From NCBI GenBank assembly GCA_000995965.1, contig LBYD01000001.1, positions 279,040-343,039 of the forward strand: a stretch of DNA of 64,000 bases. The letters are read 5' to 3'. This DNA is from Candidatus Moranbacteria bacterium GW2011_GWC2_40_12. Lineage in GTDB: Bacteria; Patescibacteriota; Minisyncoccia; Moranbacterales; UBA11712. The notes below the pieces were generated by a model. That model was not told the DNA's origin. It ran no database searches and saw only the letters and a list, made by a program, of their open reading frames with translations. Positions 1,656-63,175 of this stretch are shown here, one piece after another. The translations under genes and the position numbers were made by a program. Each line of letters starts with the position of its first letter. The first letter of the stretch is position 1.

Positions 1656-3497
1656 TTATTCCAATACTGCCTTGATTCTGCGCACTCCCGCACTGGAGGC
1701 TTCTTCTTTTTTTATACGAAAATTTCCAAGCGCACCTGTCGCGTCCGCGTGCGGACCGCCGCAGATTTCGGAAGAAAAATCAAAAATGCTGTATACCTTG
1801 ACTTTGTCCCCGTATTTTTCCCCGAATACCCCCATGGCACCCATTTTTTGCGCGTCTTCAAGCGTCATTTCCTCGCATTTCACGGGAATATCTTTTGAAA
1901 TGGCTTCGTTGACTAATCCTTCGGTTTTTTGAATTTCTTCTGGAGTCATTTTCTTTTCGTGGGAAAAATCAAGCCGCAATCTCTCGCCTGTGATGTTTGA
2001 TCCTTTTTGGATGACATGGTCACCCAATACTTTTCGGAGAGCCGCCAGAAGAAGATGCGTGGCTGTGTGAAGCCTGGCCGCGCTTTCGCCCGCATCCGCC
2101 AGTCCTCCCTTGAACATTCCCGCGCTGACCGTCCTCGACAGCTCCTGATGCTTTTTGAAATGTTCGTGATAAGATTCTTCATCTACTGCGATGCCATGTT
2201 CACGTGCGATTTCTTTGGTGAGTTCAAGCGGAAAGCCATATGTTGAAAAAAGATGAAAGGCTTTCTCGCCGGAAATTTTTTCCGCGCTCCGGCTTTCAGC
2301 GATGATTTCTTTTATTTTTTTGAGGCCTTTTTCAAGTGTTTGCCGGAATTTCATTTCTTCCTGATTGAGAGCTTCGATGATTTTTTCCGTTTCGCGTCCA
2401 AGCTCGGGATAAACTTCCTTATATTCGGAAATCACGACTTCCGCGATTTTCGAAGTGAAATTGCCTTCGATTCCCAGAATTTTTCCCTGGCGGACCGCCC
2501 GCCGGATGAGCCGGCGAAGGACATAGCCCCGCTCGACATTCGAAGGCAAAACGCCGTCCGCGATCATGAAAGTGGCCGCCTTCAAGTGGTCGGAAACTAT
2601 TCTCATGGAAATTTTTGATTCATCTTCGCTATAGTTTTTTGCGGACAACTCCTCGATCCTTCTGATAATGGGCTGAAAAAATTCCGTGTCAAAAACATTG
2701 TCTTTTCCGGTCAAAACGACAAGCGTTCTCTCCAGCCCCATGCCCGTGTCAACATTTTGCTGTTTCATTTTTTCAAAAGTCGCGTCCGCTTTTTTGTTGA
2801 ATTCCATGAAAACATCATTCCAGATTTCCATCAGACGAAAATTCTTGACAAGGCTTCCGAAAGTATCGTTCACTTTTCCGAGTTCCGGCGAAACATCATA
2901 AAACATTTCGGTGCAAGGCCCGCAAGGCCCCGTTTTTCCTGCCGGTCCCCACCAGTTGTCGTCTTTTCCAAGCGGAATAATTCTTTTCTCATAATTCACA
3001 ATCCTATCTTCGCCGGCTGCTTCGGCTTTGATGCCGACTTTGGCAAATTGCTCCTGCCAGATCCGGATGGATTCTTCGTCACGCACCGCGTCCTCATCGC
3101 CTTCAAACACCGTCACATAGAGCCGGCGCGGGTCGAGCCCCAGCCATTTTTCGCTTGTTATAAATTCAAAGCTCCACTCAATCGCTTCGCGTTTGAAGTA
3201 ATCTCCGAGCGACCAATTTCCGAGCATTTCAAAGAAAGTGAGATGGCGGTTGTCGCCCACTTCGTCAATATCAACAGTGCGGACGCATTTTTGGACGTTC
3301 GCGAGGCGCTTTCCTTTGGGATGTTTTTCGCCCATGAGAAAAGGCACGAGGGGATGCATTCCGGCGGTCGTGAAAAGCACCGTCGGGTCGTTTTCCGGAA
3401 CAACCGGAGCAGACGGAATGATGGCGTGTTCTTTTTCCTTGAAAAAATCGAGATATTTTTGTCTTAATTCTCGAGAGGTCATAAATTTCTTGGCCAA
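1656..3497 (-). CDS. alaS: alanyl-tRNA synthetase, short form (613 aa; catalytic + editing domains, no C-terminal C-Ala domain)
   Basis: N-terminus FTTAGMHPLVPF..., WSLGDYF, editing-domain HTATHLL motif; ends after GGPHADATG. Confidence 0.9.
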   Translation of the reverse strand: MAKKFMTSRELRQKYLDFFKEKEHAIIPSAPVVPENDPTVLFTTAGMHPLVPFLMGEKHPKGKRLANVQKCVRTVDIDEVGDNRHLTFFEMLGNWSLGDYFKREAIEWSFEFITSEKWLGLDPRRLYVTVFEGDEDAVRDEESIRIWQEQFAKVGIKAEAAGEDRIVNYEKRIIPLGKDDNWWGPAGKTGPCGPCTEMFYDVSPELGKVNDTFGSLVKNFRLMEIWNDVFMEFNKKADATFEKMKQQNVDTGMGLERTLVVLTGKDNVFDTEFFQPIIRRIEELSAKNYSEDESKISMRIVSDHLKAATFMIADGVLPSNVERGYVLRRLIRRAVRQGKILGIEGNFTSKIAEVVISEYKEVYPELGRETEKIIEALNQEEMKFRQTLEKGLKKIKEIIAESRSAEKISGEKAFHLFSTYGFPLELTKEIAREHGIAVDEESYHEHFKKHQELSRTVSAGMFKGGLADAGESAARLHTATHLLLAALRKVLGDHVIQKGSNITGERLRLDFSHEKKMTPEEIQKTEGLVNEAISKDIPVKCEEMTLEDAQKMGAMGVFGEKYGDKVKVYSIFDFSSEICGGPHADATGALGNFRIKKEEASSAGVRRIKAVLE

Positions 3498-3739
3498 CCT
3501 TTTTCAATATCTAAACTATGAATTATCCGAGTCTTGCCCGCCAAAGCCTTGGCGTCGGCGGGTCGGAGTTGGTTGGCTGTCATATCTTATTTGAGGCGGT
3601 CCGACCGCTCACCCCTTCGTCTGCGATCGGAACGCTTGAATTCCAGTGATTACAAAAGTAGCTTATTTTATTATAATTGTAAAGAAAAAGCCCGATGACT
3701 TCTTCGGGCGCAAGGCATTCAGCTGGATCCGCGAATTGA

Positions 3740-4045
3740 CTACTGTATAATTTTCATTTTCTTTTTTAGGCCCCTGATCTCTTCTTCCGAATACCTCTGG
3801 TTTTCCTGAATTTTTTTCAGCTTCCTGTCAAGGGCGTCACGTTCGACCCGGATGCGCTCTTCGCTTTTTTTCAGCCTTCTCTGCTCAATTTCAAGAATTT
3901 CTCTTTCGCGGAGAATTTTTTTTAGATTGGATTCGGAAATCACAATCTGGCTCTCGAGCTCCATTTTTTGCCGGCGGATATCGCCCGGATCAGAAGCGCC
4001 GCCGCTATCGTCACTGTTTTGTGAATAATCGTCGAGTAATCCCAT
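3740..4045 (-). CDS. hypothetical small coiled-coil protein (K/E/R-rich)
   Basis: 101-aa ORF, heptad-like charged repeats, tightly packed upstream of mnmA. Confidence 0.45.
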   Translation of the reverse strand: MGLLDDYSQNSDDSGGASDPGDIRRQKMELESQIVISESNLKKILREREILEIEQRRLKKSEERIRVERDALDRKLKKIQENQRYSEEEIRGLKKKMKIIQ

Positions 4046-4051
4046 AAGAAT

Positions 4052-5155
4052 TCAAATTATTGTGCCTCCCCCCAAAACTTCTCCATTTTTATAAAAAACC
4101 GCTGACTGGCCCGCTGTCACCGCCCGAAATGGCCTTTTAGTCTCGACAAGAAGCCTTCCCGACTTGCCTGGTATTATTTTAGCAGATATTCTCGTTGAAT
4201 GGTAGCGAATTTGAACGTCAGCCCGGAACGGCGATTTTTTCTTTTCATTTGTCCAATTGACTTTGCTCACCCAAAATTTCTCTTTGTGCAGCTTTTTCGA
4301 GTCGTTTGTGACAATCAGTTCATTTTTTCGAATATTTTTTCCGATTACCCAATACGGTCCGGTTCCTCCGATTTCGATCCCTTTTCGCTGTCCGATCGTA
4401 AAAATGGGCAAACCTCTATGTCTTCCCAAAACTTTTCCCGCTTCATCAATGATGTTTCCGGTTTCTGATTCAATATTCTTTGAAAAATATTTCATGGCGT
4501 CATTATCCGGCATAAAGCAGATATCTTGCGACTCATTCGTGGCAACCGGCAATTTCATTTCTTTCGCCATTTTTTTTACTTCTGATTTTTTATATCCTCC
4601 CAGCGGAAAAATAATTTTCGACAGATCTTTTTGAGCCAATTTATATAGAAAATACGATTGGTCTTTTGTTTTGTCTTCAGCTTCAAAAAGTCCGGCTTTG
4701 AAAAATTTCGGCGGCTTGCTGGCTGAAAGGCAAAGGCCGGACTTTGATTCACCGGCTAAAATACGCCCGCTTATTTTGGCGTAATGACCGGTTGCCGCAT
4801 AATCCGCCTTTTCTTTCTTCATCAAATCGAAAAGCAGGCAAAATTTCATCTCCTTGTTGCATACGACGCAGGGATTGGGGGTCTGGCCTTTTTTGTACGC
4901 GTTGAGAAAATAATCAATCACCCGCTTTTTGAATTCTTTCCGCGCGTCAATTATTTTCAGCGGAATTCCCAATTTATTCGCGATTTTTTTCACTTGGAAA
5001 CTTAGTTTCCAAGTTTGTTTGGTGAAGACAAAATAAGCACCAATAACTTCGTATCCCTGCTTTTTGAGCAGCGCCGCCGCCACTGCCGAATCCACCCCGC
5101 CGGAAAGGGCGACAACGATTTTTTTATGATTATCTTTTGGTCGCTTGTTCATCAT
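4052..5155 (-). CDS. mnmA: tRNA-specific 2-thiouridylase MnmA
   Basis: PP-loop SGGVDSAVAA, catalytic NPCVVCNKEMKF; contains an in-frame palindromic-element insertion (TWKLSFQV). Confidence 0.9.
   Translation of the reverse strand: MMNKRPKDNHKKIVVALSGGVDSAVAAALLKKQGYEVIGAYFVFTKQTWKLSFQVKKIANKLGIPLKIIDARKEFKKRVIDYFLNAYKKGQTPNPCVVCNKEMKFCLLFDLMKKEKADYAATGHYAKISGRILAGESKSGLCLSASKPPKFFKAGLFEAEDKTKDQSYFLYKLAQKDLSKIIFPLGGYKKSEVKKMAKEMKLPVATNESQDICFMPDNDAMKYFSKNIESETGNIIDEAGKVLGRHRGLPIFTIGQRKGIEIGGTGPYWVIGKNIRKNELIVTNDSKKLHKEKFWVSKVNWTNEKKKSPFRADVQIRYHSTRISAKIIPGKSGRLLVETKRPFRAVTAGQSAVFYKNGEVLGGGTII
4982..5004. repeat. PE-A: 23-nt perfect palindrome ACTTGGAAACT-T/A-AGTTTCCAAGT, copy inserted in-frame in mnmA
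   Basis: identical to the palindromes flanking and inside the RAYT-like gene at 14337-14996. Confidence 0.8.
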
Positions 5156-5202
5156 CTAGCTTTACATGATAGGTTATTTAATGGCTGCTGTCAATTCCGC
5201 GA

Positions 5203-5268
5203 TAAGAAGAAAATCCCTTTTACAAGGGATAAAAATGAGCCTAGAGCACAATCATTCGCCCTAGGCTC
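5203..5268 (-). terminator. two tandem intrinsic terminators (GAGCCUAGGGCG..CUCUAGGCUC + AUUUUU; AUCCCUUGUAAAAGGGAU + UUUCUUCUU)
   Basis: hairpins each followed by U-runs on the minus strand, downstream of ORF 5287-5796 and upstream of mnmA. Confidence 0.45.
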
Positions 5269-5286
5269 AACTCGTTGAGGGTGATA

Positions 5287-5796
5287 TTACAGCCCTTGAA
5301 AAGGCAGGACCGGGAAAAGCCGCGGTGAAGCTTGCGACTTGGGGCTGCTGCTCCATACGGTAAGCTGATCCATTGATCGGAGGATTTGCTCCGGCCGAAC
5401 CTGACTCAGAAAAGACCCGAGCGAGCCCCCCAGGAGTTGCAAACCGGAATTTCCAGCAACCTCCCTTAACGACTTTGTGAATATCCATCCTTCTCCGAGA
5501 TCCAACACCTCGTGGCGAAATACGAATTCACACTGGGTCTCGGTTAAAAAATCCACCCGGATGATGTCGGCCGACATTTGTCTTCCCCAGAAAGCGGTGT
5601 CGGAGCAGAAGATCAAATTGACGATTCCCCACTTTCCAGGTTCACGCACGAGTCCCGTGGGCCAGAAATTTAGTTTGAGCTCGCGAATGAACTCGTGAAT
5701 TGCCGCCCCCAAAACGAGCTGAGGCGGATAATTGTGGGGTAAAAGCAAACGCAAGCCGCGCACTATTTCAAAAAACAATTCGAGTCTCAACTTCAT
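5287..5796 (-). CDS. hypothetical protein, GC-elevated, no recognisable family (alternatively a structured RNA locus)
   Basis: strong SD AAGGAGGU 6 nt before ATG; TTGACA-like promoter upstream; two terminators downstream; composition about 50% GC versus about 38% in flanks; C-terminal half is low complexity. Confidence 0.35.
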   Translation of the reverse strand: MKLRLELFFEIVRGLRLLLPHNYPPQLVLGAAIHEFIRELKLNFWPTGLVREPGKWGIVNLIFCSDTAFWGRQMSADIIRVDFLTETQCEFVFRHEVLDLGEGWIFTKSLREVAGNSGLQLLGGSLGSFLSQVRPEQILRSMDQLTVWSSSPKSQASPRLFPVLPFQGL

Positions 5797-6030
5797 CGCC
5801 GACCTCCTTGAAATTTATATTGCCAATAAAAAACTTCAATCACGCTGCCGAACGTTCTCGACATAGTATTGAAGCATTTTTTTGAACATCTGTCAATAGC
5901 GCACTAAAGAAAGCAATAAATTGTTATATTTAAAGCTTTTTTACCCCATGAAGTGTATAACGCTACAAAATAAATTGCATTTTCAAGGCGCTTCCCCCAG
6001 CCGTATTTCATCTTTTGGCGACAAAAAATT

Positions 6031-7917
6031 TCAGCGGCTGCTTAGGCTCTCTTTAATCAGGCTCCGCACTTCCGCAAGATTCACCTGCTTTCTTGGCCGC
6101 TCGTTTCTTTCCCGCTTGAATTGCCGTGGCGGCATTTTTGACGCTTCACGAAGAGTAACAGTTCTTTGCGGCTGAAATCTTTCATTTCGCGGCTCTCTTT
6201 GATCGTTTGCGGCTCGGCTGCCTTGCGACTGCTGGATCTTGGCCTGCTGGCGCTGATAATCCTTGAGGCAGTCTTTGCAAAAAGTGGGCCGGGATCCGTC
6301 CGGCTTGAAGGGTACTTCTATGTCTATGTCGCAGCTCGCGCACTTGGCCGCATACATTTGCCTGCCGGAGTCGTTTCGCCCGCCTGCTTCGACTCGCGAA
6401 GCATTTCGGGCAGGTGAAGCTTTGCCGGCGGGACGATTGACGCCCGCAACGACCGCTTTTTGATTTTCGCCGGAACTTTTGATTCGTCTTGCGTCTTCCG
6501 CTTTGGCCGGCGGTTTTATTTTTTTCCCGACGATGTCATTTTTCATGTTTTTAGGGATTGAATTTGTTTGCTTGTCTTTCGTCCTTAGCTCTCTGATGAT
6601 ATTTTTCTGGCTGGCCAAATCTTTTTCAGTTACCATCCCGCTCCAGCGGGCGATTTTGTCTTCAACAATTTCCCGATCCGTCCCATACCGCTCCCGCGTG
6701 ATGCGAATCACTTTTTCTTCATTTTCCAGCGTTTTCGAAAGGTCAAACGGCGGAAGTGTCGAGGCTGAAAAAGCGTTTCCGGCTATTCCGTCAATCATCA
6801 GCTTTATATAAATTTGCCGGTTTGGAAGATTCACGAGATCCTGGATGACAAATACCGGCTCAAATTCCTTCTCCAGGAATTCGGCATCTTCTGCCCCGAC
6901 CCTGAAAACGCAAAGTGTCCCGACGTTCCCAAAAACCGCGTCTCGAACCCTCGTTGACGTATCCGTCACCAGCTGGCCGATATACTGATGGGCAATAATC
7001 AAATTAAGGTGATATTTTCTCGCTTCAGACAGAATATTGGCAAACGAATCAGTCGCGAAATTTTGGAATTCATCAACATACAAATAGAAATCTTTTCGCT
7101 CTTCTTCCGGAACATCCACCCGGGCCATGGCGGCCAGCTGAATTTTGGTGATCATCATCGCCCCGAGGAGAGCGCTGTTATCTTCGCCTATCCGGCCTTT
7201 GGAAAGGTTCATGACGAGAACTTTTCCCTGGTCCATCAGCTCGCGGATGTTGAAAGCCGATTTTGTTTGCCCGACAATGTTCCGGATAAGGGCGCTCGAA
7301 AGGAATTGACCGACTTTGTTTTGAATCGGCGAAATCACTTCTTGAAGGACCCGCTCATTCCATTGGGTGAATTCATCCACCCAGAACGACCTGACAACGG
7401 GATCGGAAATTTTTTCGACAACGCGCGCCCGGTAATGTTTATCAACCAGAATGCGGGTAACTCCCAAGAGTGTGCTGCCCGGATATTCCAGAAGTGCCAA
7501 AATAGCATTGCGAAGAATGTATTCGAGTCTTGGCCCCCATGAATCCGCCCAAATTTTTTTGAACACTCCGACCAGTCCCGATGCAATGAGATGCCGGTAT
7601 TCCGTGTCAACTTTTTCCATCACGTTGAATGCGATGGGATATTCCTGATCGGCCGGATTGAAATAAATGATGTCGTTTATCCGGTTGGAGGGAATCGATT
7701 TGATGACGGTTTCGGCAAACTCGCCGTGCGGATCAACGATTGCCACGCCCCGGCCGCTGTGGATATCCTGTATTGCCATATTTTGGATCATGGTGGTTTT
7801 TCCGGTTCCGGTTTTCCCGACAACATAAAAGTGCCGGCGCCGATCGTCGGTTTTGATTCCAAAAACCCTGTCCTGCCCGCGGAAATTTGTTTTAGCGAAT
7901 GTTGTGATCTCGTTCAT
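6031..7917 (-). CDS. P-loop ATPase of the T4SS DNA-binding-domain / VirD4-TraD-TraG-like (FtsK-HerA superfamily) with basic C-terminal tail and Cys4 zinc ribbon
   Basis: Walker A VVGKTGTGKTT after HFYV; DEFQNF Walker-B-like; C-terminal CASCD...CKDC ribbon and R/K-rich tail. Confidence 0.7.
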   Translation of the reverse strand: MNEITTFAKTNFRGQDRVFGIKTDDRRRHFYVVGKTGTGKTTMIQNMAIQDIHSGRGVAIVDPHGEFAETVIKSIPSNRINDIIYFNPADQEYPIAFNVMEKVDTEYRHLIASGLVGVFKKIWADSWGPRLEYILRNAILALLEYPGSTLLGVTRILVDKHYRARVVEKISDPVVRSFWVDEFTQWNERVLQEVISPIQNKVGQFLSSALIRNIVGQTKSAFNIRELMDQGKVLVMNLSKGRIGEDNSALLGAMMITKIQLAAMARVDVPEEERKDFYLYVDEFQNFATDSFANILSEARKYHLNLIIAHQYIGQLVTDTSTRVRDAVFGNVGTLCVFRVGAEDAEFLEKEFEPVFVIQDLVNLPNRQIYIKLMIDGIAGNAFSASTLPPFDLSKTLENEEKVIRITRERYGTDREIVEDKIARWSGMVTEKDLASQKNIIRELRTKDKQTNSIPKNMKNDIVGKKIKPPAKAEDARRIKSSGENQKAVVAGVNRPAGKASPARNASRVEAGGRNDSGRQMYAAKCASCDIDIEVPFKPDGSRPTFCKDCLKDYQRQQAKIQQSQGSRAANDQREPRNERFQPQRTVTLREASKMPPRQFKRERNERPRKQVNLAEVRSLIKESLSSR

Positions 7918-9247: not shown

Positions 9248-9340
9248 TGCGAATTACGAATACGCTTCGCTCTACAAATATGCCAATTACGAATATTTTT
9301 TACATTTGTATATTCGTAAAAGATTCATAATCCGTAAAAG
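9248..9340. repeat. about 95-bp TACGAAT/ATTCGTA-rich imperfect palindromic dispersed element (full copy 1)
   Basis: about 93% identical to 61838-61934; partial copies at 18820, 41622, 47796, 51075; fills the whole intergenic space directly 5' of a minus-strand start codon. Confidence 0.7.
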
Positions 9341-10453
9341 TTATCTTAATTTGTATCCGTCCGCTTTTTTTTCAAAGACTTTCCTGTTGGCCAGATTGAC
9401 GGCGATAGTCGCCCTTTTTACTTTTCTTTTCCCAAGAACTTCCTCATAAAGTTTTTCTCTCTTCAGAAAACCGCCAGCCGAATTCAAAAGATTGACGATG
9501 ACATCCTTCACTGTTCCCTCTTCGAAGCCCCACTCGCGCAAGGCATAGGTTCCCCGGCCAACCAGGACGAATCTTTTGTCGCGGATCAGTTCATTGTGAA
9601 CAGTTTGAGGATGGACTTTTTTTCCGCTCAACTTCAATTCTTCAATCAGTTGGCTTATTTCGCGGAAATGGAGCGGTTTTCCTTTCTTCATCAGAACCAG
9701 TGTGGCTTTTTCGCGCACTCCTCGCGGCCGGATGAGCGGCCACCGGGCTTTTCCCCAGTCTCCGAAAACATTTTGTCCGAACTTTTTGGAAATTTCGAGA
9801 AAACTCAGTATATGCTCCGGCTTCATTTCGGAATATTTTTGGGAAAACTCGCTATGATCCAGTTTCTTGAGAACTTCCTCGAGGGTCAATATTTTTTTCC
9901 CCGTGTCGAAGATCATCTCCAATTCATCAACTGCTGCCTTGAAATATTTTTTGTCGAAATCTGGGTGAATCCATGTATCTTCCATTTCCCGATTTGATCT
10001 CGCTTTTTTGATCCCGGTCATGAGAAAAATTACTTCAAGCAATTTGGCTTCCTGCAGTGAAAGTTTTTCATTTCCCGTGTATCTCAAGAAAACGCCGCTC
10101 GCCAGTTTTTCTGCTTTGATGATTCCCCCGTTTTCTTTGATTATATCGTTTACGCAAGCTGAAAGGTTATCGAGGTTACTGACTTTTTCCGTTTTTTTCA
10201 GGGCCTTCACGGCATCTCCTTCGATTTGCCTCACTCTTTCCCTTGTGATATTCAGATTTTTTCCGATAGCCTCGAGTGTTTTTGGCTGTCCGTTTCCAAT
10301 CCCGAAACGGCTGGAAAGAACCAGTTTCTGCTTGGCGCTAAGACTGTCCAAAAGGCTTTCAACGACAGACTTCAAATCTGCTGTTTTTACTGGGATTTTT
10401 TGGGATAAATCCGAATTTTCCCTTGAATTTACCATATTTCTTGAAGCAAACAT
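9341..10453 (-). CDS. sigma-70 region-4 domain protein with C-terminal HARE-HTH domain (atypical sigma-like regulator)
   Basis: LVLSSRFGIG...TLEAIGKNLNITRERVRQIEGDAVKALKK (region 4.2) near N-terminus; C-terminus LHFREISQLIEE...RFVLVGRGTYALREWG (HARE-HTH); annotated ATG at 10501 overlaps the -10 box so start moved to 10453. Confidence 0.6.
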   Translation of the reverse strand: MFASRNMVNSRENSDLSQKIPVKTADLKSVVESLLDSLSAKQKLVLSSRFGIGNGQPKTLEAIGKNLNITRERVRQIEGDAVKALKKTEKVSNLDNLSACVNDIIKENGGIIKAEKLASGVFLRYTGNEKLSLQEAKLLEVIFLMTGIKKARSNREMEDTWIHPDFDKKYFKAAVDELEMIFDTGKKILTLEEVLKKLDHSEFSQKYSEMKPEHILSFLEISKKFGQNVFGDWGKARWPLIRPRGVREKATLVLMKKGKPLHFREISQLIEELKLSGKKVHPQTVHNELIRDKRFVLVGRGTYALREWGFEEGTVKDVIVNLLNSAGGFLKREKLYEEVLGKRKVKRATIAVNLANRKVFEKKADGYKLR

Positions 10454-10500
10454 TATTGTTTTGCTATTGATTATTATAGCGCGATTAATCTCGGTATGCA

Positions 10501-10529
10501 ATCATAACACAGGGTTGTCAGATTGTCAA
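10501..10529 (-). promoter_or_regulatory. sigma-70-type promoter TTGACA-N17-TATGAT
   Basis: minus-strand cTTGACAatctgacaaccctgtgtTATGATtgc upstream of 9341-10453. Confidence 0.55.
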
Positions 10530-18817: not shown

Positions 18818-18819
18818 AA

Positions 18820-18885
18820 TATTTCTTTACGAATTTATTGTATTCGTATATTCGTAATAGATTCGTAATTCGTAAAATAATCATA
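18820..18885. repeat. partial copy of the TACGAAT-rich element, directly 5' of polX
   Basis: ctttacgaatttattgtattcgtatattcgtaatagattcgtaattcgtaaaa. Confidence 0.6.
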
Positions 18886-23857: not shown

Positions 23858-23878
23858 CGTAGGTGTCGGACACCTACG
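23858..23878. repeat. PE-B: 21-nt perfect palindrome CGTAGGTGTC-G/C-GACACCTACG at 3' flank of RAYT-2
   Basis: distinct from PE-A; located between P-type ATPase start and RAYT-2 stop. Confidence 0.85.
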
Positions 23879-23880
23879 AT

Positions 23881-24528
23881 TTATTCTAGTAAATATTTCT
23901 CCCTTTCCTTTTTCTCTTTCATATACAAAGAATTTTCTTTTATAAATTCTCGATATTCATTCTTATTTTTAAATTCATTAAGAATAACACCTGTGTCACA
24001 AATCCCCCCGTTTCTTTTCCCAGTATAATCTAAAAAACTGGAATATGGCCAGTCAAAATCGTCACCGTATCCATGAATAAAATAGTTTTTGTTAACATAG
24101 GCTGATAAATAAAGAAGATGTGCGTTTGTCCTTATACGGATCGATTTAAATTTCCCCTGAAACAATACTCCGGATCTTTTGTAATGATAGTTGAAATAAT
24201 TTGTATAACCGCCTCCGAGCCTTTTCATATATTCAGAAATTCCATGTTCTGTTGATTGTTTTAAGATCAAGTGAAAATGATTCGGATTAAGACAATAACA
24301 TATGATTTCAACTAATTTTTCCATTCGTAGGTGTCCGACACCTACGTCTTGCTTTCTTTCTTGCTGACTGTGCCTATACAAGCTATGGATAGGATCAATT
24401 TGGTTAAATTCTTTCATGGACGTTAAAAATCGATTATAGTCTCTGTTGGATAAAAAAACTTTCCGTTTTTCAACGCCACGGTTATAAATGTGGTAATATT
24501 CATTGACATCTAGGGGTTGTTTTCTCAT
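23881..24528 (-). CDS. IS200/IS605-family Y1 transposase, RAYT-like (RAYT-2), paralog of 14337-14996
   Basis: EYYHIYNRG, NHFHLIL (HuH), YLLYLSAYVNKN, SGVLFQGKFK; own palindrome PE-B on both flanks and in-frame (VGVGHLR). Confidence 0.8.
   Translation of the reverse strand: MRKQPLDVNEYYHIYNRGVEKRKVFLSNRDYNRFLTSMKEFNQIDPIHSLYRHSQQERKQDVGVGHLRMEKLVEIICYCLNPNHFHLILKQSTEHGISEYMKRLGGGYTNYFNYHYKRSGVLFQGKFKSIRIRTNAHLLYLSAYVNKNYFIHGYGDDFDWPYSSFLDYTGKRNGGICDTGVILNEFKNKNEYREFIKENSLYMKEKKEREKYLLE
24326..24346. repeat. PE-B palindrome copy inside RAYT-2 coding sequence (in-frame)
   Basis: CGTAGGTGTCCGACACCTACG. Confidence 0.85.
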
Positions 24529-24534
24529 AAACCT

Positions 24535-24552
24535 TAGGTGTCGAACACCTAC
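24535..24552. repeat. degenerate PE-B copy at the 5' flank of RAYT-2
   Basis: TAGGTGTCGAACACCTAC (one mismatch in loop). Confidence 0.7.
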
Positions 24553-25209: not shown

Positions 25210-25248
25210 TTAGAGCTTCGCTAAAGTTGAACCTTAGCGAGAATAGAA

Positions 25249-25276
25249 AGAGCGGATATTTCCGCTCTTTTTCTTT
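25249..25276 (+). terminator. intrinsic terminator downstream of the PilX-like gene
   Basis: AGAGCGGATATTTCCGCTCT + TTTTCTTTATTTT. Confidence 0.5.
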
Positions 25277-25642
25277 ATTTTATAACATAACTCGACCCAA
25301 CATTAACCATTCCTAAAGTTGAACTTTAGGAAGAGAGGATATCTCGTGGATATTGTCAGTTATTGATTGATGTCAAATCACTATCATACGATAGTAAAAC
25401 AAAAAGCTAAAAAAGGAATCGAAAAATTTTAGAGTTTTGCTAAGGTTCGACCTTAGCAAAGGCAGGAATTGGAAATTTTTTTATATTTCCTTCCTTCCCT
25501 CAATTGCGCCGGTGAGTAACCATTCCTAAAGTTTAACTTAAGGAAGTCAAAAAGAACGAGTCCACAGCTCGTTCTTTGAATATTATCCAAAAATTTGTTA
25601 TCCTAAGGCTTCCTAACATCCGATGTTAGAAAATAGAAAACT

Positions 25643-25674
25643 CACCGCTTTCGAGCGGTGGGTTTTTCTTTTGC
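25643..25674. terminator. bidirectional intrinsic terminator (serves htrA on minus strand)
   Basis: CACCGCTTTCGAGCGGTG flanked by A-rich (5') and T-rich (3') runs. Confidence 0.45.
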
Positions 25675-25747
25675 GGATTCTTTTGTAACCCTTACCAACA
25701 TTGAATGTTGGTAAGATGTTGGTAAGAAAAAAAGCGGTTTAGTTTTT

Positions 25748-25768
25748 GTAGGTGTCCGACACACCTAT
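25748..25768. repeat. degenerate PE-B copy just 3' of htrA
   Basis: GTAGGTGTCCGACACACCTAT. Confidence 0.6.
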
Positions 25769-25773
25769 GAGTT

Positions 25774-27045: not shown

Positions 27046-27170
27046 AATGAGAAATAATAAATTAAAAATAAAATAGAAGAAATAAATATCAGAAAGAGGA
27101 AAATTTCAAGAAACACAAAAAAGCATTTCTAATTTCTGCTATTTATTTCTTCTCTCTCATATCTTATGTC

Positions 27171-29785: not shown

Positions 29786-29916
29786 AAATTAATGCAAAAT
29801 GCAAATCTCAAAATTACAAATGACATTTCAAAATGTTTAAATACCCCTAAAACAAATATGACAATAAACTTTACATTTTAAACTGTCATTTTCCATTTTG
29901 ATTTATTAATTTTCAA

Positions 29917-35461: not shown

Positions 35462-35548
35462 ATGAGATATAAAAAATAAGAAATAAGAAAGTTGAAAAGA
35501 GGAAAGCTAATAAAAATAATTTCTTTTCTCTTATTTCTTATATCTTAT

Positions 35549-35929
35549 TTAAAAGTTTATCAGTATCACGCTCCCCAGCCCCACCGCCATAAGAAGCTGA
35601 ACGAGAAGCGCCATTGCTGCAAAAAGATACGAAGCCAGCCGCTCTTTATAATAGAAAAAACGCGAAAGAACCGCGTTAACCAAAAAAATAACCGCCGCCA
35701 GCGCAGGCATCAGAAAAACATTTCTCCAATCCCCTATCGAGTCAACGCCAAAATAGACATTGTAGTGAAGAATTATCGGCCGGCTGGCGGGTTCCACTAT
35801 CTGCCAAACCGCTATCCACATGCCAAGATTCAAAAGAATCGCCAGAACCAGTGAAAAAAATATCACTGGATCGGTCCAATAGCTGTGCCAAAAAAACCTT
35901 TTAAATTTTTCCTTCAGTTTTTGCATCAT
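35549..35929 (-). CDS. hypothetical membrane protein (start trimmed; annotated ORF overlaps rmuC 3' end)
   Basis: 3 predicted TM helices; start set at MMQKLKE. Confidence 0.4.
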   Translation of the reverse strand: MMQKLKEKFKRFFWHSYWTDPVIFFSLVLAILLNLGMWIAVWQIVEPASRPIILHYNVYFGVDSIGDWRNVFLMPALAAVIFLVNAVLSRFFYYKERLASYLFAAMALLVQLLMAVGLGSVILINF

Positions 35930-40992: not shown

Positions 40993-41039
40993 AATGTTAG
41001 GATTATAAATTACAATTTATGAATTATGAGTTAGCCTAT

Positions 41040-41074
41040 CCGCCCAACTCGCTTCGCGACTCGAAGCGGGCGGG
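41040..41074. repeat. GC-rich hairpin CCGCCC..CGCTTCGCGACTCGAAGCG..GGGCGG in rplJ-rplL spacer (shares CGCTTCGC/GCGAAGCG arms with the 110-bp repeat family)
   Basis: 7-bp inner stem and 6-bp outer stem. Confidence 0.5.
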
Positions 41075-41105
41075 CTCGAAAAAAACTATATTTTCACTGG
41101 CCTAA

Positions 41106-41621: not shown

Positions 41622-41665
41622 GATATTCTTTACGAATTACGAATCAGTTACGAATATACGAATTT
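41622..41665. repeat. partial TACGAAT-rich element directly 5' of rplJ
   Basis: ttctttacgaattacgaatcagttacgaatatacgaattttt. Confidence 0.55.
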
Positions 41666-41896
41666 TTATAAAAAATAAAAAGCCCGCTATATCCACAGGC
41701 CCAGAAAAAAACAATAAAAACTGTAATTTCCTCGTTGGGACTTAATCCGCTAGCTGGCGGAGCCCAATTTCTGCGGAAAATGATTATTTAACTGACAAAA
41801 TACATTATATATGGCCCAAATAATATGTCAAGGCCACCCTCCATATTCGATCAGATATTCTAGTACTTTAGCGAATTAAAATGTATGTTTAATAAA

Positions 41897-45203: not shown

Positions 45204-45258
45204 TTTGATATAAGATATTAAAAATAAGATAGAAGAAATAAATATTAGAAATAATAAA

Positions 45259-45657
45259 TTATTTTTTTCCTCTTAACGTTAACAAGCTTGACCCAAATAT
45301 CTTAGAATACTCATCTAATTCCTTCAGAAACCATTCGACACTTTCGGGTTTCACTCTTTTACTGTCCCGCAAAAGCGCAAACCACAATTTACTTTCATTA
45401 TTCGACTTATAGGAATGATTGAAAAAATTAGTGAAGTCTTTTTTACTACTGGCACATTGCCCCTCCACAAAATTTGCAATAATACTCGTGCCACTTCTTA
45501 ATAATTGATCACCAATTCTTTTCGAAACATTGTCATTTGGGAGTTTATCAATAAATTCGATAAGTTTCAATGTAAAAATATAAAGCCTCTTTTTAAAATC
45601 ATTTCTTAATACTTCTTTCTCATCTTTCATTTTTATTTCTTCTTTTTTATATCTCAT
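45259..45657 (-). CDS. four-helix-bundle protein (bAvd / 23S rRNA IVS protein family)
   Basis: ...SIIANFVEGQCASSKKDFTNFFNHSYKS... matches TIGR02436-type four-helix bundle. Confidence 0.65.
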   Translation of the reverse strand: MRYKKEEIKMKDEKEVLRNDFKKRLYIFTLKLIEFIDKLPNDNVSKRIGDQLLRSGTSIIANFVEGQCASSKKDFTNFFNHSYKSNNESKLWFALLRDSKRVKPESVEWFLKELDEYSKIFGSSLLTLRGKK

Positions 45658-45665
45658 TTCTTATT

Positions 45666-47417
45666 TCACCAGCTTCCTCCGCCTCCGCCACCGAATCCAC
45701 CGCCACCTCCCCCTCCGGAAAAACCGGAACCGCCGCCGGATGCTGAAGATGGCTGGCTGGCCATGGCCGTCCCGGCTGTATTCGAAAAATCATTTATCAG
45801 GCTTGATAAAATTATAGCATTGAAAGCCCGCCCAGACGAATCCTCGTACCAGTCCGGCTGCTGGTTGTATATTCCTTCAAATTGCTTCGCCCATTCTTTT
45901 TCAACCCCAAGAACCATCGCGTAGGGTAGAAATCTTTCGAACATCTGGGGATTTTTCTCGGGCGCGTTATGAAATTTCAACCGATCCGTTTCCGTGACAG
46001 AGAGAAAATCCTTGAATCCCAGAATATTTTCCTTGATCCCGGCGCCTTTTTTGGTCACCGCCGGCATCAGCCAGCCAAAGATTGCTATGATTATCGTCGA
46101 GACAATCCCGCTAAACACTCCCCATCCTCCCTGAAGATTGCCGAAAATCACTGTGAGGAATACTCCGCCGATTATCCCGCCAATAAGCCAACCAGCTCTC
46201 GTACTATTCGGATTTGAAACATAATATCCTTTTTCTGTGATGCCCTTATAAAGCTGGTCTTTTACCGCCGCGAGGGTTTTGAAAAATTTGTTTTTGAGAT
46301 CCGATAATTTCTTTTCTTTATCCCCATTGAAGATTCCCTTCATCACTTCTTTTTCAAAATCCCGCGTCGGCTCTTCATCCTTGATTTTAATAAACGTATA
46401 ATCCTTGCTTTTCGTCCCGAAAAATCCCTTTTCCTCCGTGCGTTTGATTTTCAAGAATTTGTTGACAGCCAGATCAATGATTGTCGAAGAAACATCCTTG
46501 TTGTCCGCCGAACCATCCATCATTGTTCCGATTTCCGCCGGCGCGAGCTTGTCCGGCGGTTCATATTGCGCGATGATTGTCCCCCGCCCTTTCGGGTCAC
46601 GGCCCTTTTTGCTCCAAAGGCGATACATAAAGACAAAAACAATGATTGGAAAAAATAGCGTCCAGTTATCGCGCGCGATATCCATAATTTTTACCCTAGA
46701 GCTCAGCTCTAGGGTAATTCCTTTCGGCCAGCCGGCGACAATCGTCATCCCTTCGCCGGGATTGATTATTCCCGTTGATTTATATTCTAAAATATTTCCG
46801 CTCGCGCTTGCCACGCATTCATTCGTGGTCCCAAAAACTCCTTCAAAGCATTTGTACTGCAAATTTTCTATGGCGTTTTCTGGAAGAATAATTTTGAGCG
46901 CTGCGCTCTCAATGGGGACTGGCCATTTGTCGCCCGTGAAGTTCCAATAAAGCTCATCGTGATCTGGGAAAAAATTCACCGCCCGACGAATTACGTAACT
47001 AATTACGTAATTCTTCGTCCCGCTGACGTATTTGTCCGCGTCGCCGATTTGAAATTTTATATTCTCGCCCTCGTAATCCGTGGTGAAATTATACGGCGCG
47101 CCGTTTTCGTCCGTGATTTTCATGTTCGAAACCCGCAAATTATAATTCCCTCCCCGCGCTTTGTATTTCACCGGAATGAACCGGAAAATTCCGTGCTTCT
47201 GCTGGTCGCCAAAGTCATAAGCGATAGTCTCTTTTACATCAATCGTGCTGTCTGAGTTTATTCGGATATCGCCGATGAAATTTATGATTTTCTCGGTGCT
47301 AGGATAACTTTGTGCAAAAGATGAATTTAAGGAAAATATAAGAAATAAGAAACAAGAAATAAGAAAAATTGGAAATTTTTTATTTCTTCTATTTATTTTT
47401 TCTATTTTATTTCTCAT
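45666..47417 (-). CDS. DUF2207-like membrane protein (large extracytoplasmic N-domain, C-terminal TM pair, Gly-rich tail)
   Basis: signal peptide, ...GGGSGFSGGGGGGGFGGGGGGSW tail; carries in-frame PE-C palindrome (TLELSSRV). Confidence 0.65.
   Translation of the reverse strand: MRNKIEKINRRNKKFPIFLISCFLFLIFSLNSSFAQSYPSTEKIINFIGDIRINSDSTIDVKETIAYDFGDQQKHGIFRFIPVKYKARGGNYNLRVSNMKITDENGAPYNFTTDYEGENIKFQIGDADKYVSGTKNYVISYVIRRAVNFFPDHDELYWNFTGDKWPVPIESAALKIILPENAIENLQYKCFEGVFGTTNECVASASGNILEYKSTGIINPGEGMTIVAGWPKGITLELSSRVKIMDIARDNWTLFFPIIVFVFMYRLWSKKGRDPKGRGTIIAQYEPPDKLAPAEIGTMMDGSADNKDVSSTIIDLAVNKFLKIKRTEEKGFFGTKSKDYTFIKIKDEEPTRDFEKEVMKGIFNGDKEKKLSDLKNKFFKTLAAVKDQLYKGITEKGYYVSNPNSTRAGWLIGGIIGGVFLTVIFGNLQGGWGVFSGIVSTIIIAIFGWLMPAVTKKGAGIKENILGFKDFLSVTETDRLKFHNAPEKNPQMFERFLPYAMVLGVEKEWAKQFEGIYNQQPDWYEDSSGRAFNAIILSSLINDFSNTAGTAMASQPSSASGGGSGFSGGGGGGGFGGGGGGSW
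46691..46717. repeat. PE-C: palindrome TTACCCTAGAGCT-C-AGCTCTAGGGTAA in-frame in DUF2207 gene
   Basis: identical 25-nt core also inside secA at 55354-55378. Confidence 0.8.
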
Positions 47418-47429
47418 TTCTTATATTGA

Positions 47430-47795
47430 TTAGAATCTCGCGTTTTCATCAACTACCATTTTTTTCTTGAGCGAGCGGCCGCCGCGGCGGCGGAGGGTCG
47501 TGATTTTGTCCTTGTCCCTTTCAATTTGCGATTCCAGGCTTTCATAGACACTGTCTATTGAACCCTCGACTGACACAGTTGTATCTTCCCCCCGATATTT
47601 TTGATAAGGCGTTTGAAGCATCACTTCCACACGGAATTTTCCTTTTTTGTCGAGATTTATTTCCACTTCGGCCGAAATTTCAGCGTCTTTGCGAAAAGAC
47701 TCGAAGAATTTTCCAAGTTTCTCGACTTTTTCCCTGACATAACTTTCTGTCCTCCCGTCAATTTTGACCTCCTTGAAAAGAAATCTGATATTCAT
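47430..47795 (-). CDS. hpf: ribosome hibernation promoting factor (HPF/RaiA)
   Basis: sigma-54 modulation protein fold; KFFESFRKD...VEVML. Confidence 0.85.
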   Translation of the reverse strand: MNIRFLFKEVKIDGRTESYVREKVEKLGKFFESFRKDAEISAEVEINLDKKGKFRVEVMLQTPYQKYRGEDTTVSVEGSIDSVYESLESQIERDKDKITTLRRRGGRSLKKKMVVDENARF

Positions 47796-47920
47796 GAATT
47801 CTTTACTAATTACGAATTAAATACGAATATACGAATTTTAAATGAAGAATGCTTACACAATGATAATACGCTCTACATTACACATTATTCGTACATTCGT
47901 AAAGATTCGTAATTCGTAAA
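47796..47920. repeat. variant copy of the TACGAAT-rich element between smc stop and hpf start
   Basis: ttactaattacgaattaaatacgaatatacgaa...atacgctctaca...ttcgtacattcgtaaagattcgtaattcgtaaag. Confidence 0.6.
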
Positions 47921-47922
47921 GA

Positions 47923-50259: not shown

Positions 50260-50305
50260 ATTTTTGTTTTAGAGAATTTAGAATTTGGAATTGCGAATGG
50301 GAATA

Positions 50306-50370
50306 GAGAATTGTGAATTTAGAATTCCAAATCCTATATTTATATTCTCAATTCTAAATTCACAATTCTC
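50306..50370. repeat. long inverted repeat: 21-nt arms GAGAATTGTGAATTTAGAATT / AATTCTAAATTCACAATTCTC separated by 23 nt, between rnc and smc
   Basis: perfect 21-bp complementary arms; embedded in GAATT-rich direct repeats. Confidence 0.6.
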
Positions 50371-50380
50371 AATTCTATTT

Positions 50381-51073
50381 TTACCATCCTTTCGCCTCGA
50401 GACCGGCTCTCGCTGCTTCTCTTTGCGCCTGCTGCTTTGAATTTCCTTCGCCTCGGGCCACTTCTTCGTCTTCAAGATAAACTCCAACAATGAATTTTTT
50501 GTCATGGTCCGGTCCGGATTCGGAAATCACTCGATAATTCGGGGTTATTCCAGCCCGGGCCTGGGATTCTTCTTGAAAATTGGATTTGGGATCAATATAT
50601 AATTTCCTTTTTATGACTTCTTCGAGTCGGGACAGGATATTTTCTGATATGAATTTTTTGGCCGCGTCGTATCCTCGATCGAGATAAATCGCTCCGATGA
50701 TCGCTTCAAACGCGTTGGCGAGAAGATATTCCCGCGCCCGGCCTGTATCTTTGGCTTCACCGCGGCTCATTTGCAAATATCCCTCGACGCCCAATTCGCG
50801 CGAAACCTTCGAGAGCATATCCTTGTTCACGAGCGCCGCCCGCCAGTTGGTAAGTTCGCCCTCGGGATTGGGAAAATTGAGATAGAGATAATCCGTCACC
50901 ACCAATTCCAAAACTGCGTCGCCTAAAAATTCGAGCCGTTCATTGTGGTCAAGCTTATAGCTGCGGTGCTCGTTGATGTACGAGCGGTGAGTCACAGCGG
51001 TTCGCAAAAGATCGATATTTTTGAGTTTTATTTTTATTTTCTTCTCGAGTTCTTCGATATTTTTGACAGTCAT
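50381..51073 (-). CDS. rnc: ribonuclease III
   Basis: ERLEFLGDAVLELVVTDYLY signature, C-terminal dsRBD. Confidence 0.9.
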   Translation of the reverse strand: MTVKNIEELEKKIKIKLKNIDLLRTAVTHRSYINEHRSYKLDHNERLEFLGDAVLELVVTDYLYLNFPNPEGELTNWRAALVNKDMLSKVSRELGVEGYLQMSRGEAKDTGRAREYLLANAFEAIIGAIYLDRGYDAAKKFISENILSRLEEVIKRKLYIDPKSNFQEESQARAGITPNYRVISESGPDHDKKFIVGVYLEDEEVARGEGNSKQQAQREAARAGLEAKGW

Positions 51074-51074
51074 A

Positions 51075-51170
51075 GCATGACTGTAATTGGTAATTTGTAA
51101 TCGGTAATTGGGGATTTTAAAAATATCCTAATTACGAATTACTAATTACGAATTACTAATTACTTAAAAA
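51075..51170. repeat. GTAATT/TACGAAT-type repeat block between nusB stop and rnc start
   Basis: gtaattggtaatttgtaatcggtaattgggg...cctaattacgaattactaattacgaattactaattac. Confidence 0.55.
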
Positions 51171-51172
51171 AA

Positions 51173-51658: not shown

Positions 51659-51732
51659 AAAATTAGAAATTTTTCAACTTGGAATATTCAATATTCAAAA
51701 AAATCTTCAACTTGTCAAATTTCAACGGCAAA

Positions 51733-60465: not shown

Positions 60466-60611
60466 TTCATTAAAAATAAAATCTTCCGCATAGGAAGATA
60501 AGAAATTTATATCTTTCCCTTGCGGGCTAGAGGTAGCACCACGTCTAATAAAAATTAGATTGGTTGCTGGCAGGTCGCAGGGCTAGTTCCCTCGCTGCGC
60601 TCTTGATACTC
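60466..60611 (-). promoter_or_regulatory. SAM-I (S-box) riboswitch with terminator expression platform in the metK leader
   Basis: minus-strand AUCAAGAG-CGCAGCGAGGGAACUAGCCCUGCGACCUGCCAGCAACC...GGUGCUACCUCUAGCCCGCAAGGGAAAGAUA matches SAM-I core; followed by AUCUUCCUAUGCGGAAGAU + UUUAUUUUU just before ATG. Confidence 0.7.
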
Positions 60612-60699
60612 GCCCCGACCTTAATGCGTCGGGGCTTTATTCAATTTTCGAAAGATATATGTATTATAGCGTTTTATATATTCGAGTCAAGGACAATAG

Positions 60700-61833: not shown

Positions 61834-61837
61834 GTGT

Positions 61838-61934
61838 TTCTTTACGAATTACGAATACGCTTCGCTCTACGAATATACCAATTACGAATATTTTTACATT
61901 CGTATATTCGTAAGAGATTCGTAATTCGTAAAAG
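61838..61934. repeat. about 95-bp TACGAAT-rich imperfect palindromic element (full copy 2)
   Basis: fills dnaJ-stop to next start codon; about 93% identical to 9248-9340. Confidence 0.7.
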
Positions 61935-63047: not shown

Positions 63048-63067
63048 CGTAATTAATGTAAAATTAA

Positions 63068-63175
63068 AAAATCAAAATGAAAAATTTTGGAACTCGCTTC
63101 GCTCGTAAACTATTTTAAAAAACTATAGTCGCGAAGCGACACCTTAATTTTGCATTTTGATATTTTCATTTTGAA
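63068..63175. repeat. about 110-bp dispersed repeat (copy 2)
   Basis: aaaatcaaaatgaaaaattttgg...tcgcttcgctc...gcgaagcga...ttaattttgca... Confidence 0.7.

Follow-up and report, generated by a model that had tools for sequence, protein, structure and literature searches.

Palindromic TACGAAT-heptad elements between genes of a Moranbacteria genome and their possible relation to rRNA intervening sequences

The closest precedent for the elements described here is the TAACTGA heptamer repeats found upstream of start codons. These repeats occur in marine Beggiatoaceae, Cyanobacteria, and Bacteroidetes as two to six plain tandem copies; only 12 of 170 sets face a stop codon and one set is inverted, and the proposal made for these repeats, which end just upstream of start codons, is that they bind a translational factor (MacGregor 2015, PMC4679880). 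We analyzed a 64,000-nt stretch (the window, 64 kb) of Candidatus Moranbacteria bacterium GW2011_GWC2_40_12 (contig LBYD01000001.1, positions 279,040 to 343,039), a groundwater Patescibacteria (Candidate Phyla Radiation, CPR) genome of the Moranbacteria type, in which palindromes and single arms built from the heptad TACGAAT (ATTCGTA on the opposite strand) stand between genes. With moderate confidence, we read these TACGAAT elements as partly decayed copies, without an open reading frame (ORF), of a selfish element of the intervening sequence (IVS) type, whose full form carries a GxxExxY gene. IVSs, palindromic intergenic repeats, and heptamer repeats beside start codons are each already known. 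What appears to be new is a family with a fixed four-heptad arm, its occurrence across phyla at operon junctions as well as at rRNA IVS sites, and its bracketing of GxxExxY genes.

The TACGAAT elements resemble the TAACTGA repeats as tandem intergenic heptanucleotides that end a few bases from a start codon in one preferred orientation, often without a canonical ribosome-binding site and before ribosomal-protein genes, and both occur in unrelated phyla, with long arrays in Bacteroidetes. They differ in the heptad itself, in the fixed four-unit arm, in the common occurrence of inverted pairs, and in a stop-proximal position that is nearly as frequent as the start-proximal one; a link to IVS sites or to GxxExxY genes is not reported for the TAACTGA repeats. 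The cyanobacterial STRR and Nostoc heptamers are also intergenic heptamer tandems near starts or promoters, with a suspected regulatory role, although their sequences and host phylum are different. To our knowledge, STRR have neither a fixed arm architecture nor ORF cargo.

Palindromic intergenic repeats offer a further comparison. The Correia elements (NEMIS), known only from Neisseria, are 100–150 bp palindromes near genes with which they are co-transcribed, and RNase III cuts their hairpins, altering mRNA stability and expression; their inverted ends of 26 bp contain no heptads, they show TA duplications, and we know of no ORF-carrying form. The TACGAAT palindromes are like them in lying near genes, in presumably being transcribed with these, and in forming hairpins, but no defining Correia feature was found in the TACGAAT elements. 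REP and REPIN sequences are likewise dispersed intergenic palindromes, often just past stop codons and in inverted doublets, and the outer end of the TACGAAT arm (...CGTAG) recalls the GTAG of REPs. However, each REP is itself a hairpin, whereas the TACGAAT arm is not self-complementary (fold z −0.2) and has no associated RAYT gene; no Y1 transposase was found in the window. Integron attC core sites (R''/L''...L'/R', RYYYAAC...GTTRRRY) were absent from the element sequences, and the flanking genes are syntenic housekeeping genes. The early genes of phage T7 have RNase III sites in intercistronic hairpins, and the TACGAAT hairpins are similarly intercistronic and directly upstream of the initiation region of the next gene.

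The TACGAAT elements of the window

TACGAAT was present 38 times on the two strands of the window, compared with 7.49 ± 3.08 times (maximum 15) in dinucleotide-preserving shuffles. Six clusters were found (9248-9355, 18828-18874, 41631-41663, 47804-47918, 51086-51160, and 61843-61930), and all of them were gaps between minus-strand genes, immediately 5' of a minus-strand start codon. The corresponding elements were as follows.

E1, 9248..9340, minus strand: degenerate paralogue of E6; the downstream gene encodes a 423-aa hypothetical protein
E2, 18818..18880, minus strand: complete stop-proximal-type arm plus a lone ATTCGTA heptad; the downstream gene is PolX (Pfam)
E3, 41622..41665, minus strand: single start-proximal arm ATTCGTATATTCGTA-ACTG-ATTCGTAATTCGTAAAGAATATC-ATG, between the terminator-like hairpin of the rplJ leader and the rplJ start
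E4, 47796..47922, minus strand: full palindrome, 127 nt long and with a loop of 50 nt, extending from the SMC stop (47923-47925) to the ATG (47793-47795) of the ribosome hibernation factor (HPF)
E5, 51074..51172, minus strand: palindrome of a related heptad flavour, (GTAATTM)5 ... (KAATTAC)4, from the NusB stop to the rnc (RNase III) start
E6, 61834..61934, minus strand: full TACGAAT palindrome, from the DnaJ stop (61935-61937) to the ATG (61831-61833) of a 165-aa hypothetical protein

A first-pass annotation, made by a model from the letters of this DNA, had described a palindromic element directly upstream of start codons, and this position held for all six copies. Its near-identical copies at 9248-9340 and 61838-61934 were also confirmed: E1 and E6 aligned over about 97 nt with seven substitutions and one indel (about 92% identity), loop and 11-nt bulge included. 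Their homology began one base after the upstream stop (TAA-C-TTTTACG) and ended at ...TTCGYAAA, and the right arm of E6 contained a GAGCGAAGCGT bulge. The arms, given as about 45 nt, had to be shortened, since the conserved arm measures about 33–36 nt. Other parts of the description applied to some copies only. The copy at 47796 had been counted among the shorter variants and is a full palindrome (E4); that at 41622 is a single arm rather than a palindrome, and that at 18820 combines a full left arm with one right heptad; the heptad at 51075 is GTAATTM/KAATTAC and not TACGAAT. The element had further been said to fill the stop-to-start gap in every case. E4, E5, and E6 did so, whereas E1, which began 1 nt past the stop of a sigma70_r4/HARE-HTH gene (9341-10501; Pfam), ended 24 nt before the ATG, and E2 and E3 were preceded by terminator-like hairpins. 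The hairpin upstream of E2 was located at 18931-18910, and the element ended 8 nt before the PolX ATG.

RNA folding, a check proposed in that annotation, gave long hairpins for E4 (−41.9 kcal/mol, z −6.2), E5 (z −5.99), and E6 (−36.6 kcal/mol, z −5.75). E1 folded with a z of −3.55, E2 weakly (z −1.6), and E3 was unstructured (z −0.2). The stems of the intact pairs spanned from the stop codon to the start codon, and at the stem base of E4 the stop-codon region paired with the bases just 5' of the ATG. The stems were A/U-rich and followed by AAAGAA, with no T runs. Neither an intrinsic terminator nor sigma-70 hexamers were found inside the arms in scans; the terminator-like hairpins and a 12/12 promoter were all outside them. 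The rnc gene for RNase III is itself encoded in the window (50381..51073, minus strand; Pfam Ribonucleas_3_3, Ribonuclease_3, dsrm).

The element copies were identical in every sample of the same population that covered them. The window elements are therefore not hypervariable, and strain-level variation in heptad copy number (phase variation) was ruled out. At gathering thresholds, Rfam detected three tRNAs and a SAM riboswitch in the window and no family over the elements. A full-text search of the searchable literature for TACGAATTACGAAT or ATTCGTAATTCGTA returned no matching paper, and nothing relevant was found in the literature on 'Candidate Phyla Radiation' together with intergenic palindromic repeats.

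Syntenic relatives with 77–89% identical HPF (loci L125-L128, L130, and L131) had no copy of it at the junctions of HPF, rnc, and rplJ, whereas the HPF junction of L133, L134, and L138 carried differing element versions. At the nusB/rnc junction, the genes of L125 overlapped with no spacer, and L128 had a palindrome of yet another flavour. The absence of the arm from the same junctions in close syntenic relatives indicates that the window copies are lineage-specific insertions. When the loop of E4 was aligned with the HPF promoter spacers of the relatives, on the idea that it might be an ancestral spacer, the scores mostly did not exceed those of shuffles: one z reached 4.1, and all others stayed below 2.

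The rplJ junction showed where a single arm lies relative to the transcription signals. A 12/12 TTGACA-16-TATAAT promoter was found at 41831-41804 (minus strand) and a terminator-like leader hairpin at 41702-41680. The promoter region and the conserved rplJ leader, with its hairpin directly before the ATG, were common to the relatives, four of which had no arm. Since the single arm E3 stands between the leader hairpin and the rplJ ATG, it is in the 5' untranslated region (UTR) and not in the promoter, and a promoter reading was dropped, given the perfect promoter and conserved leader upstream of the arm. Rfam gave no L10 leader match for the rplJ leader (41680-41831, minus strand) at the gathering threshold.

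The conserved arm, its gene-carrying form, and rRNA genes

One genome per species was scanned with the pattern TACGAATTACGAAT-N2-6-TACGAAT (21 specified bases). At least 118 stretches matched, from many Patescibacteria lineages, many Bacteroidota, and some metagenome-assembled genomes (MAGs) of Omnitrophota, Bdellovibrionales, Acidobacteriota, and Lentisphaerae. When 155 arms were aligned on their outer end, the arm was seen to consist of four heptads in 33 nt, ATTCGTA-N-ATTCGTA-N3/4-ATTCGTAATTCGTA-G. Its boundaries were sharp, with no conservation outside the 33-nt module in the 155 arms; the search pattern had contained neither the fourth heptad nor the 1-nt spacer position nor the final G. 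The outcome that the first-pass annotation had named as refuting, copies restricted to this region and devoid of conserved boundaries, was thus clearly contradicted.

Among the 118 loci listed, about 35 had inverted pairs and about 75 had single arms. The 1-nt spacer was complementary in 23 of 30 distinct pairs (39% expected), and the palindrome reached 2 nt past the arms, with complementary bases in 29/30 and 24/30 pairs. The 3–4-nt gap was complementary in only 4 of the 30 and therefore forms a conserved internal loop common to every hairpin. The length or sequence of this gap was not the same in the two arms of an element, nor from copy to copy, whereas the heptads did not vary. As the heptads are conserved beyond the needs of pairing while the spacers vary, they are probably recognized in a sequence-specific manner by some factor. 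The GxxExxY nuclease-family protein described below would be the obvious candidate for such a reader, although this is speculation.

The outer (double-heptad) end of single arms was adjacent to a start codon in 24/69 and to a stop codon in 20/69, and the inner end in 4/69 and 5/69, respectively. Outer-end distances peaked at 5–10 nt for starts and 1–7 nt for stops. All start-proximal arms read as ATTCGTA; after them came GAGA, GGAG, or, in the window genome, AAAGAA, and 4–8 nt later the ATG. Intergenic heptads ending 5–10 nt before a start are thus shared with the TAACTGA type, whereas an arrangement of direct repeats that are essentially never inverted and rarely face a stop was not observed, in view of the inverted pairs and the 20 stop-facing arms against 24. 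The near-equal frequency of stop-facing and start-facing arms speaks against a role in translation alone or as a promoter alone. Many of the genes downstream were, by their first codons, housekeeping genes (L36, L31, L11, L10, S6, EF-Ts, GroEL, YchF, and HPF), of which the window has L10 and HPF, and in L042 element copies were found between ribosomal-protein genes. Long-range pairing of single arms across a gene (R arm, gene, L arm), in the manner of rRNA processing stems, was dropped as a general rule, with only 2/79 complete genes bracketed.

A longer form with the same arms was found to encode a GxxExxY protein (TIGR04256/PF13366, PD-(D/E)XK superfamily) and no recognized transposase. In the motif-selected loci, GxxExxY genes lay between TACGAAT-type and ATTCGTA-type arms in L083 (Bacteroidota) and L104 (Parcubacteria). 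To remove the bias of motif selection, five independent CPR homologues of GxxExxY were fetched by protein similarity alone, and arms bracketed the gene in 5/5 of these loci (L166, L168, L170, L172, and L174). All five genes were located between co-directional housekeeping genes, with that of L170 between rpsG and fusA. The spacer past the upstream stop consisted of TACGAAT-like heptads, and the spacer before the downstream ATG repeated the four-unit layout with ATTCGTA-like heptads. This enrichment depended on orientation: 1–6 TACGAAT-like heptads on the 5' side and 3–4 ATTCGTA-like heptads on the 3' side, compared with 0.16 and 0.06 per 100 nt elsewhere in the loci. No solved structure matched the GxxExxY protein by sequence. 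In a survey of the PD-(D/E)XK superfamily, the function of the GxxExxY family is listed as unknown and its phylogeny shows many transfers (PMC3424549). A small nuclease-family gene between co-directional essential genes, such as rpsG and fusA, recalls free-standing homing-endonuclease genes, GxxExxY proteins being only putative endonucleases.

The same palindrome was also found inside an rRNA gene. In locus L019, the 23S rRNA gene (2078-6187) was complete and measured 4110 nt, compared with the 2925 positions of the Rfam LSU model. TACGAAT palindromes were inserted at model positions 583/584 and 1218/1219, which by the flanking conserved sequence are the loops of helix 25 and helix 45, and a third palindrome was present in the 23S-5S spacer. 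The two copies within the gene folded into hairpins of some 60 bp, with energies of −71.5 and −76.7 kcal/mol and z near −13, and had the same 3x3 internal loop. These two IVSs account for only about 0.3 kb of the excess length of about 1.2 kb, and the L019 23S gene must therefore contain one or more other large insertions.

Helices 25 and 45 are the classic IVS sites; RNase III excises the IVSs there, the rRNA ends are not re-ligated, and horizontal spread of such IVSs is presumed (PMC11270868). The TACGAAT palindromes of L019 occupy the same two helix loops, and their sporadic occurrence suggests horizontal transfer. ORF-carrying and ORF-less forms exist in both cases, and in the window a PF05635 gene stands between arms of another heptad flavour. 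Unlike the rRNA IVSs, the window copies are placed between protein-coding genes or in a 5' UTR, and the cargo of the TACGAAT flavour is GxxExxY, whereas some IVSs carry an ORF for the PF05635 'S23/IVS protein'. We know of no IVS described with heptad-built arms in a fixed four-unit layout.

Other heptad flavours and further features of the window

Heptad repetition in the window was not limited to TACGAAT. The lag-7 match of intergenic DNA was 0.323, compared with about 0.285, and coding DNA was without such autocorrelation. About 14 of 46 spacers of at least 30 nt (about a third) exceeded their own background lag-7 match by at least 0.1. At least 10 spacers were stop-to-start palindromes of A/T-rich heptads (GAATTGA, AAGAAAT, AAAATGN, and GTAATTM) with fold z of −4 to −5.5, flavours of one architectural class to which the TACGAAT elements also belong, and in several of these the stem base joined the stop-codon region to the bases just before the next start. 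The main examples were the following.

50260..50380, minus strand: GAATTGA/TTCTAAA palindrome, stop-to-start from rnc to smc; lag-7 match 0.61, fold z −5.55
45204..45700, minus strand: ORF-carrying AAGAAAT element with a PF05635/TIGR02436 gene (45259-45657); arms at about 45204-45258 and 45650-45700
27046..27170, minus strand: ORF-less AAGAAAT palindrome, stop-to-start, fold z −4.08; a second copy at about 35462-35560
63048..63175, minus strand: AAAATGN palindrome, stop-to-start, upstream of dnaJ; inner CGCTTCGCG/CGCGAAGCG clamp; z −4.95

The rnc-smc spacer measured 9 nt in L125, and a paralogue of the AAAATGN palindrome was present at about 60881-60990, after a tRNA. Further stop-to-start spacers of A/T-rich heptads (GAATTGA, AAAATGN, TTGAANN, and others) were found at 29786-29916, 51659-51732, and 40993-41105, several with strong hairpins. 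Two of the other-flavour spacers had the CGCTTCGCG...CGCGAAGCG clamp, and a related GCGAAGCG motif was found in the bulge of E1 and E6.

The PF05635 gene at 45259-45657 encodes a four-helix-bundle '23S rRNA IVS protein', a distant relative of Avd (Pfam, NCBIfam), and is located in the loop of an AAGAAAT-type palindrome between DUF2207 and yjbQ; it was missing at that junction in L125, L126, and L128. Three more PF05635-family genes in the fetched loci likewise had inverted heptad arms on both sides, in flavours of their own. PF05635 was considered as cargo of the TACGAAT flavour and rejected, as the genes near TACGAAT arms in L023, L027, and L113 bear other-flavour arms.

Long TACGAAT arrays in Bacteroidota (L083:1216-1570 and L053:3412-3678) give repetitive pseudo-peptides in all frames (LRITNYE, YEYTNIRI), which are likely called as spurious database proteins.

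Several unrelated features were also observed. A SAM riboswitch (60506-60612, minus strand; 47.1 bits, gathering threshold 44.4) was located directly upstream of the S-adenosylmethionine synthetase gene, metK (59404-60459). Three tRNA genes (60700-60772, 60995-61068, and 61119-61191, minus strand) lay between the gene of the 165-aa hypothetical protein and metK, where a simple ORF list places short spurious ORFs. In a sample with identical SecA (L004:439-1566), a reverse-transcriptase (RVT_1) gene was found upstream of metK, where other samples have the dnaJ region. REP-like perfect hairpins GTAGGTGTCCGACACCTAC were present at 23859-23877, 24327-24345, and 24534-24552 (six strand matches, none expected), around a P-type ATPase gene and its neighbour, with a further variant near 25760. 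The 564-nt non-coding stretch at 25210-25773 contained, by eye, several hairpins of the type CCTAAAGTTCAACTTTAGG/CTAAGGTCGAACCTTAG. In L128, a RAYT-like gene (1847-2506) beside secA had the hairpin CGTAGCGGTTAAACCGCTACG on both sides and is a candidate REP/RAYT system in a CPR genome. This hairpin is unrelated to the TACGAAT arm, and a RAYT/REP link of the elements was rejected.

Origin of the elements and competing explanations

Under the IVS-type reading, the full-length element would carry a small GxxExxY gene between two arms, the left one built from TACGAAT heptads and the right one from ATTCGTA heptads. It would insert where a self-folding insert does little harm, that is, in the few bases between a stop codon and the next start or in the terminal loops of 23S helices 25 and 45. 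Loss of the ORF would leave a palindrome of 90–130 nt and further decay a single 33-nt arm, whose outer (double-heptad) end would still abut the codon beside the original landing site. This reading accounts for arms at coding boundaries on either side, for palindromes after ORF loss, and for single arms after further loss. The element would be transcribed with the host operon or 5' UTR, and the paired form may then fold into a long A/U-rich hairpin with one fixed 3–4-nt internal loop, the base of which would bring the stop codon beside the next start. By analogy with rRNA IVSs, RNase III would cut the stem, separating the cistrons and leaving the stem halves on the new RNA ends; the hairpin would also keep neighbouring cistrons functionally adjacent. 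Start-proximal arms end in a purine-rich tail (AAAGAA, GAGA, or GGAG, then 4–8 nt and ATG), which may serve as the initiation region of the downstream gene.

Several observations weigh against this account. No GxxExxY gene was found within the 64-kb window, and the element copies showed neither a target-site duplication nor any other signature at their junctions. The decay route is inferred rather than observed. Single arms, which cannot form a hairpin, outnumber pairs about 2:1 in the fetched loci, and the conservation of the heptads across phyla is far tighter than a stem needs, with spacers free to vary. In L170, nearly all heptads of both arms share one change (ATTTGTA/TACAAAT); this indicates that the heptads evolve in concert and hints at sequence-specific recognition. 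On the sense strand, G.U and A.C mismatches numbered 7 and 4, counts that do not separate constraint on RNA from constraint on DNA. The motif itself served to select the at least 118 stretches, and the taxonomic assignment of MAGs may be in error; for rRNA, the evidence is confined to one operon, on a MAG contig with a doubtful label.

The main rival holds that the heptads bind a sequence-specific RNA or DNA factor, such as ribosomal protein S1, a cold-shock protein, or another protein, which aids or controls translation independent of a Shine-Dalgarno sequence in a dispersed post-transcriptional regulon, with the palindromes incidental. Start-proximal arms that stop 5–10 nt short of the ATG, downstream genes that mostly have no well-spaced GGAGG and are in many cases highly expressed housekeeping genes, and heptads conserved past the needs of pairing beside varying spacers all fit this explanation, and the TAACTGA precedent shares its position, cross-phylum spread, and ribosomal-protein targets (PMC4679880), with the Nostoc heptamers as a second precedent. 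We nevertheless consider it unlikely, given that single arms abut stops in the opposite orientation almost as often as starts (20 vs. 24), that orthologues in close relatives work without the arm, and that an operator has no reason to be inside 23S rRNA helices or to bracket GxxExxY genes. An action of the arm on DNA, as promoter, operator, or transcriptional roadblock at gene boundaries, seems very improbable. Its polarity is symmetric about coding-sequence boundaries, as might be expected on double-stranded DNA, and two copies follow terminators directly before genes; but the arm has no −35/−10-like hexamers, it is within the rplJ transcript, whose own perfect promoter is 140 nt upstream, and the same arm occurs inside rRNA genes and in both Bacteroidota and CPR, which differ in promoter consensus. 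An operator array for a TACGAAT-binding regulator, one of three candidates offered by the first-pass annotation, was likewise not supported: orthologous sites do without the element, stops have an arm beside them about as often as starts, and the rplJ arm sits in the 5' UTR about 140 nt downstream of the sigma-70 promoter.

The annotation had also suggested a miniature inverted-repeat transposable element (MITE), and much of that candidate survives. The elements have 33-nt inverted arms, measure 60–130 nt, number six in 64 kb, and are multi-copy with conserved boundaries, absent from orthologous junctions, present in several phyla, and matched by a longer ORF-carrying form with the same arms. 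What does not survive is the classical machinery: the check for target-site duplications, which a TA within the first heptad would escape, detected no direct repeats outside the arms, the flanks being complementary and not duplicated, and the associated gene belongs to the PD-(D/E)XK-family GxxExxY and is not a transposase. A conventional MITE moved in trans by a DDE transposase (e.g., IS630/Tc1-like, with the TA duplication hidden in TACGAAT) and with no role at the RNA level is therefore a poorer fit and, in our estimation, improbable. In its favour, the elements are small, end in inverted arms, occur several times per genome, and are patchily distributed, every arm begins with TA, and the complementary flanks (C...G or T...A in 29/30 pairs) would suit a CTAG or TTAA target; yet no transposase was found between the arms, no duplication is visible outside the heptads, the gap within the arm varies between arms and copies while the heptads are identical, and rRNA helix tips and exact coding-sequence boundaries are atypical of DDE elements. 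Slightly less probable still is a non-mobile origin by heptanucleotide slippage and hairpin-templated copying in place within A/T-rich spacers, with convergence as the cause of likeness across genomes. The intergenic lag-7 periodicity, at least five heptad flavours, and the presence of different flavours at the same junction in different lineages favour it, and, as cited in PMC4679880, the long simple repeats of bacteria are most often heptanucleotides (Mrazek 2007). Slippage does not explain the recurrence of the 33-nt architecture (7+1+7+3/4+7+7+G) across phyla and at rRNA IVS sites, the approximately 97 nt shared by E1 and E6 including loop and bulge, the identity of copies among population samples, or the specific association with GxxExxY. 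The third candidate of the annotation, an intercistronic RNA hairpin acting as a processing or stability signal, is plausible, and is strengthened by the strong folding of the paired copies and by the identical palindromes at two RNase III-processed 23S IVS sites; single arms cannot form the hairpin.

A wider proposal built on the IVS-type reading is more tentative, and we regard it as possible but doubtful: inverted heptad arms may be the mark of selfish elements that form a large, previously unrecognized class across phyla, carry either GxxExxY or PF05635, settle at rRNA helix tips and essential-operon junctions, and neutralize themselves at the RNA level as a cassette through a hairpin and RNase III, which would remove or bypass the insert and leave host ribosomes and operons functional, with the encoded protein recognizing its own heptads in order to spread and the start-adjacent heptamers of Beggiatoaceae, Cyanobacteria, and Bacteroidetes as relics or relatives. 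If true, rRNA IVSs, GxxExxY and four-helix-bundle genes, and start-adjacent heptamers would belong to one class of mobile elements. RNase III would then be expected to cleave defined hairpins, GxxExxY to bind or cut TACGAAT arms, and heptad flavour to co-evolve with the protein clade. For annotation, the arms yield spurious 'LRITNYE'-type peptides and may pass for regulatory sites. In streamlined CPR genomes, a sizeable share of the scarce non-coding DNA, as seen here, would consist of such inserts. Even if the elements are merely tolerated junk, they would still be a clean example of selfish DNA persisting in very compact genomes.

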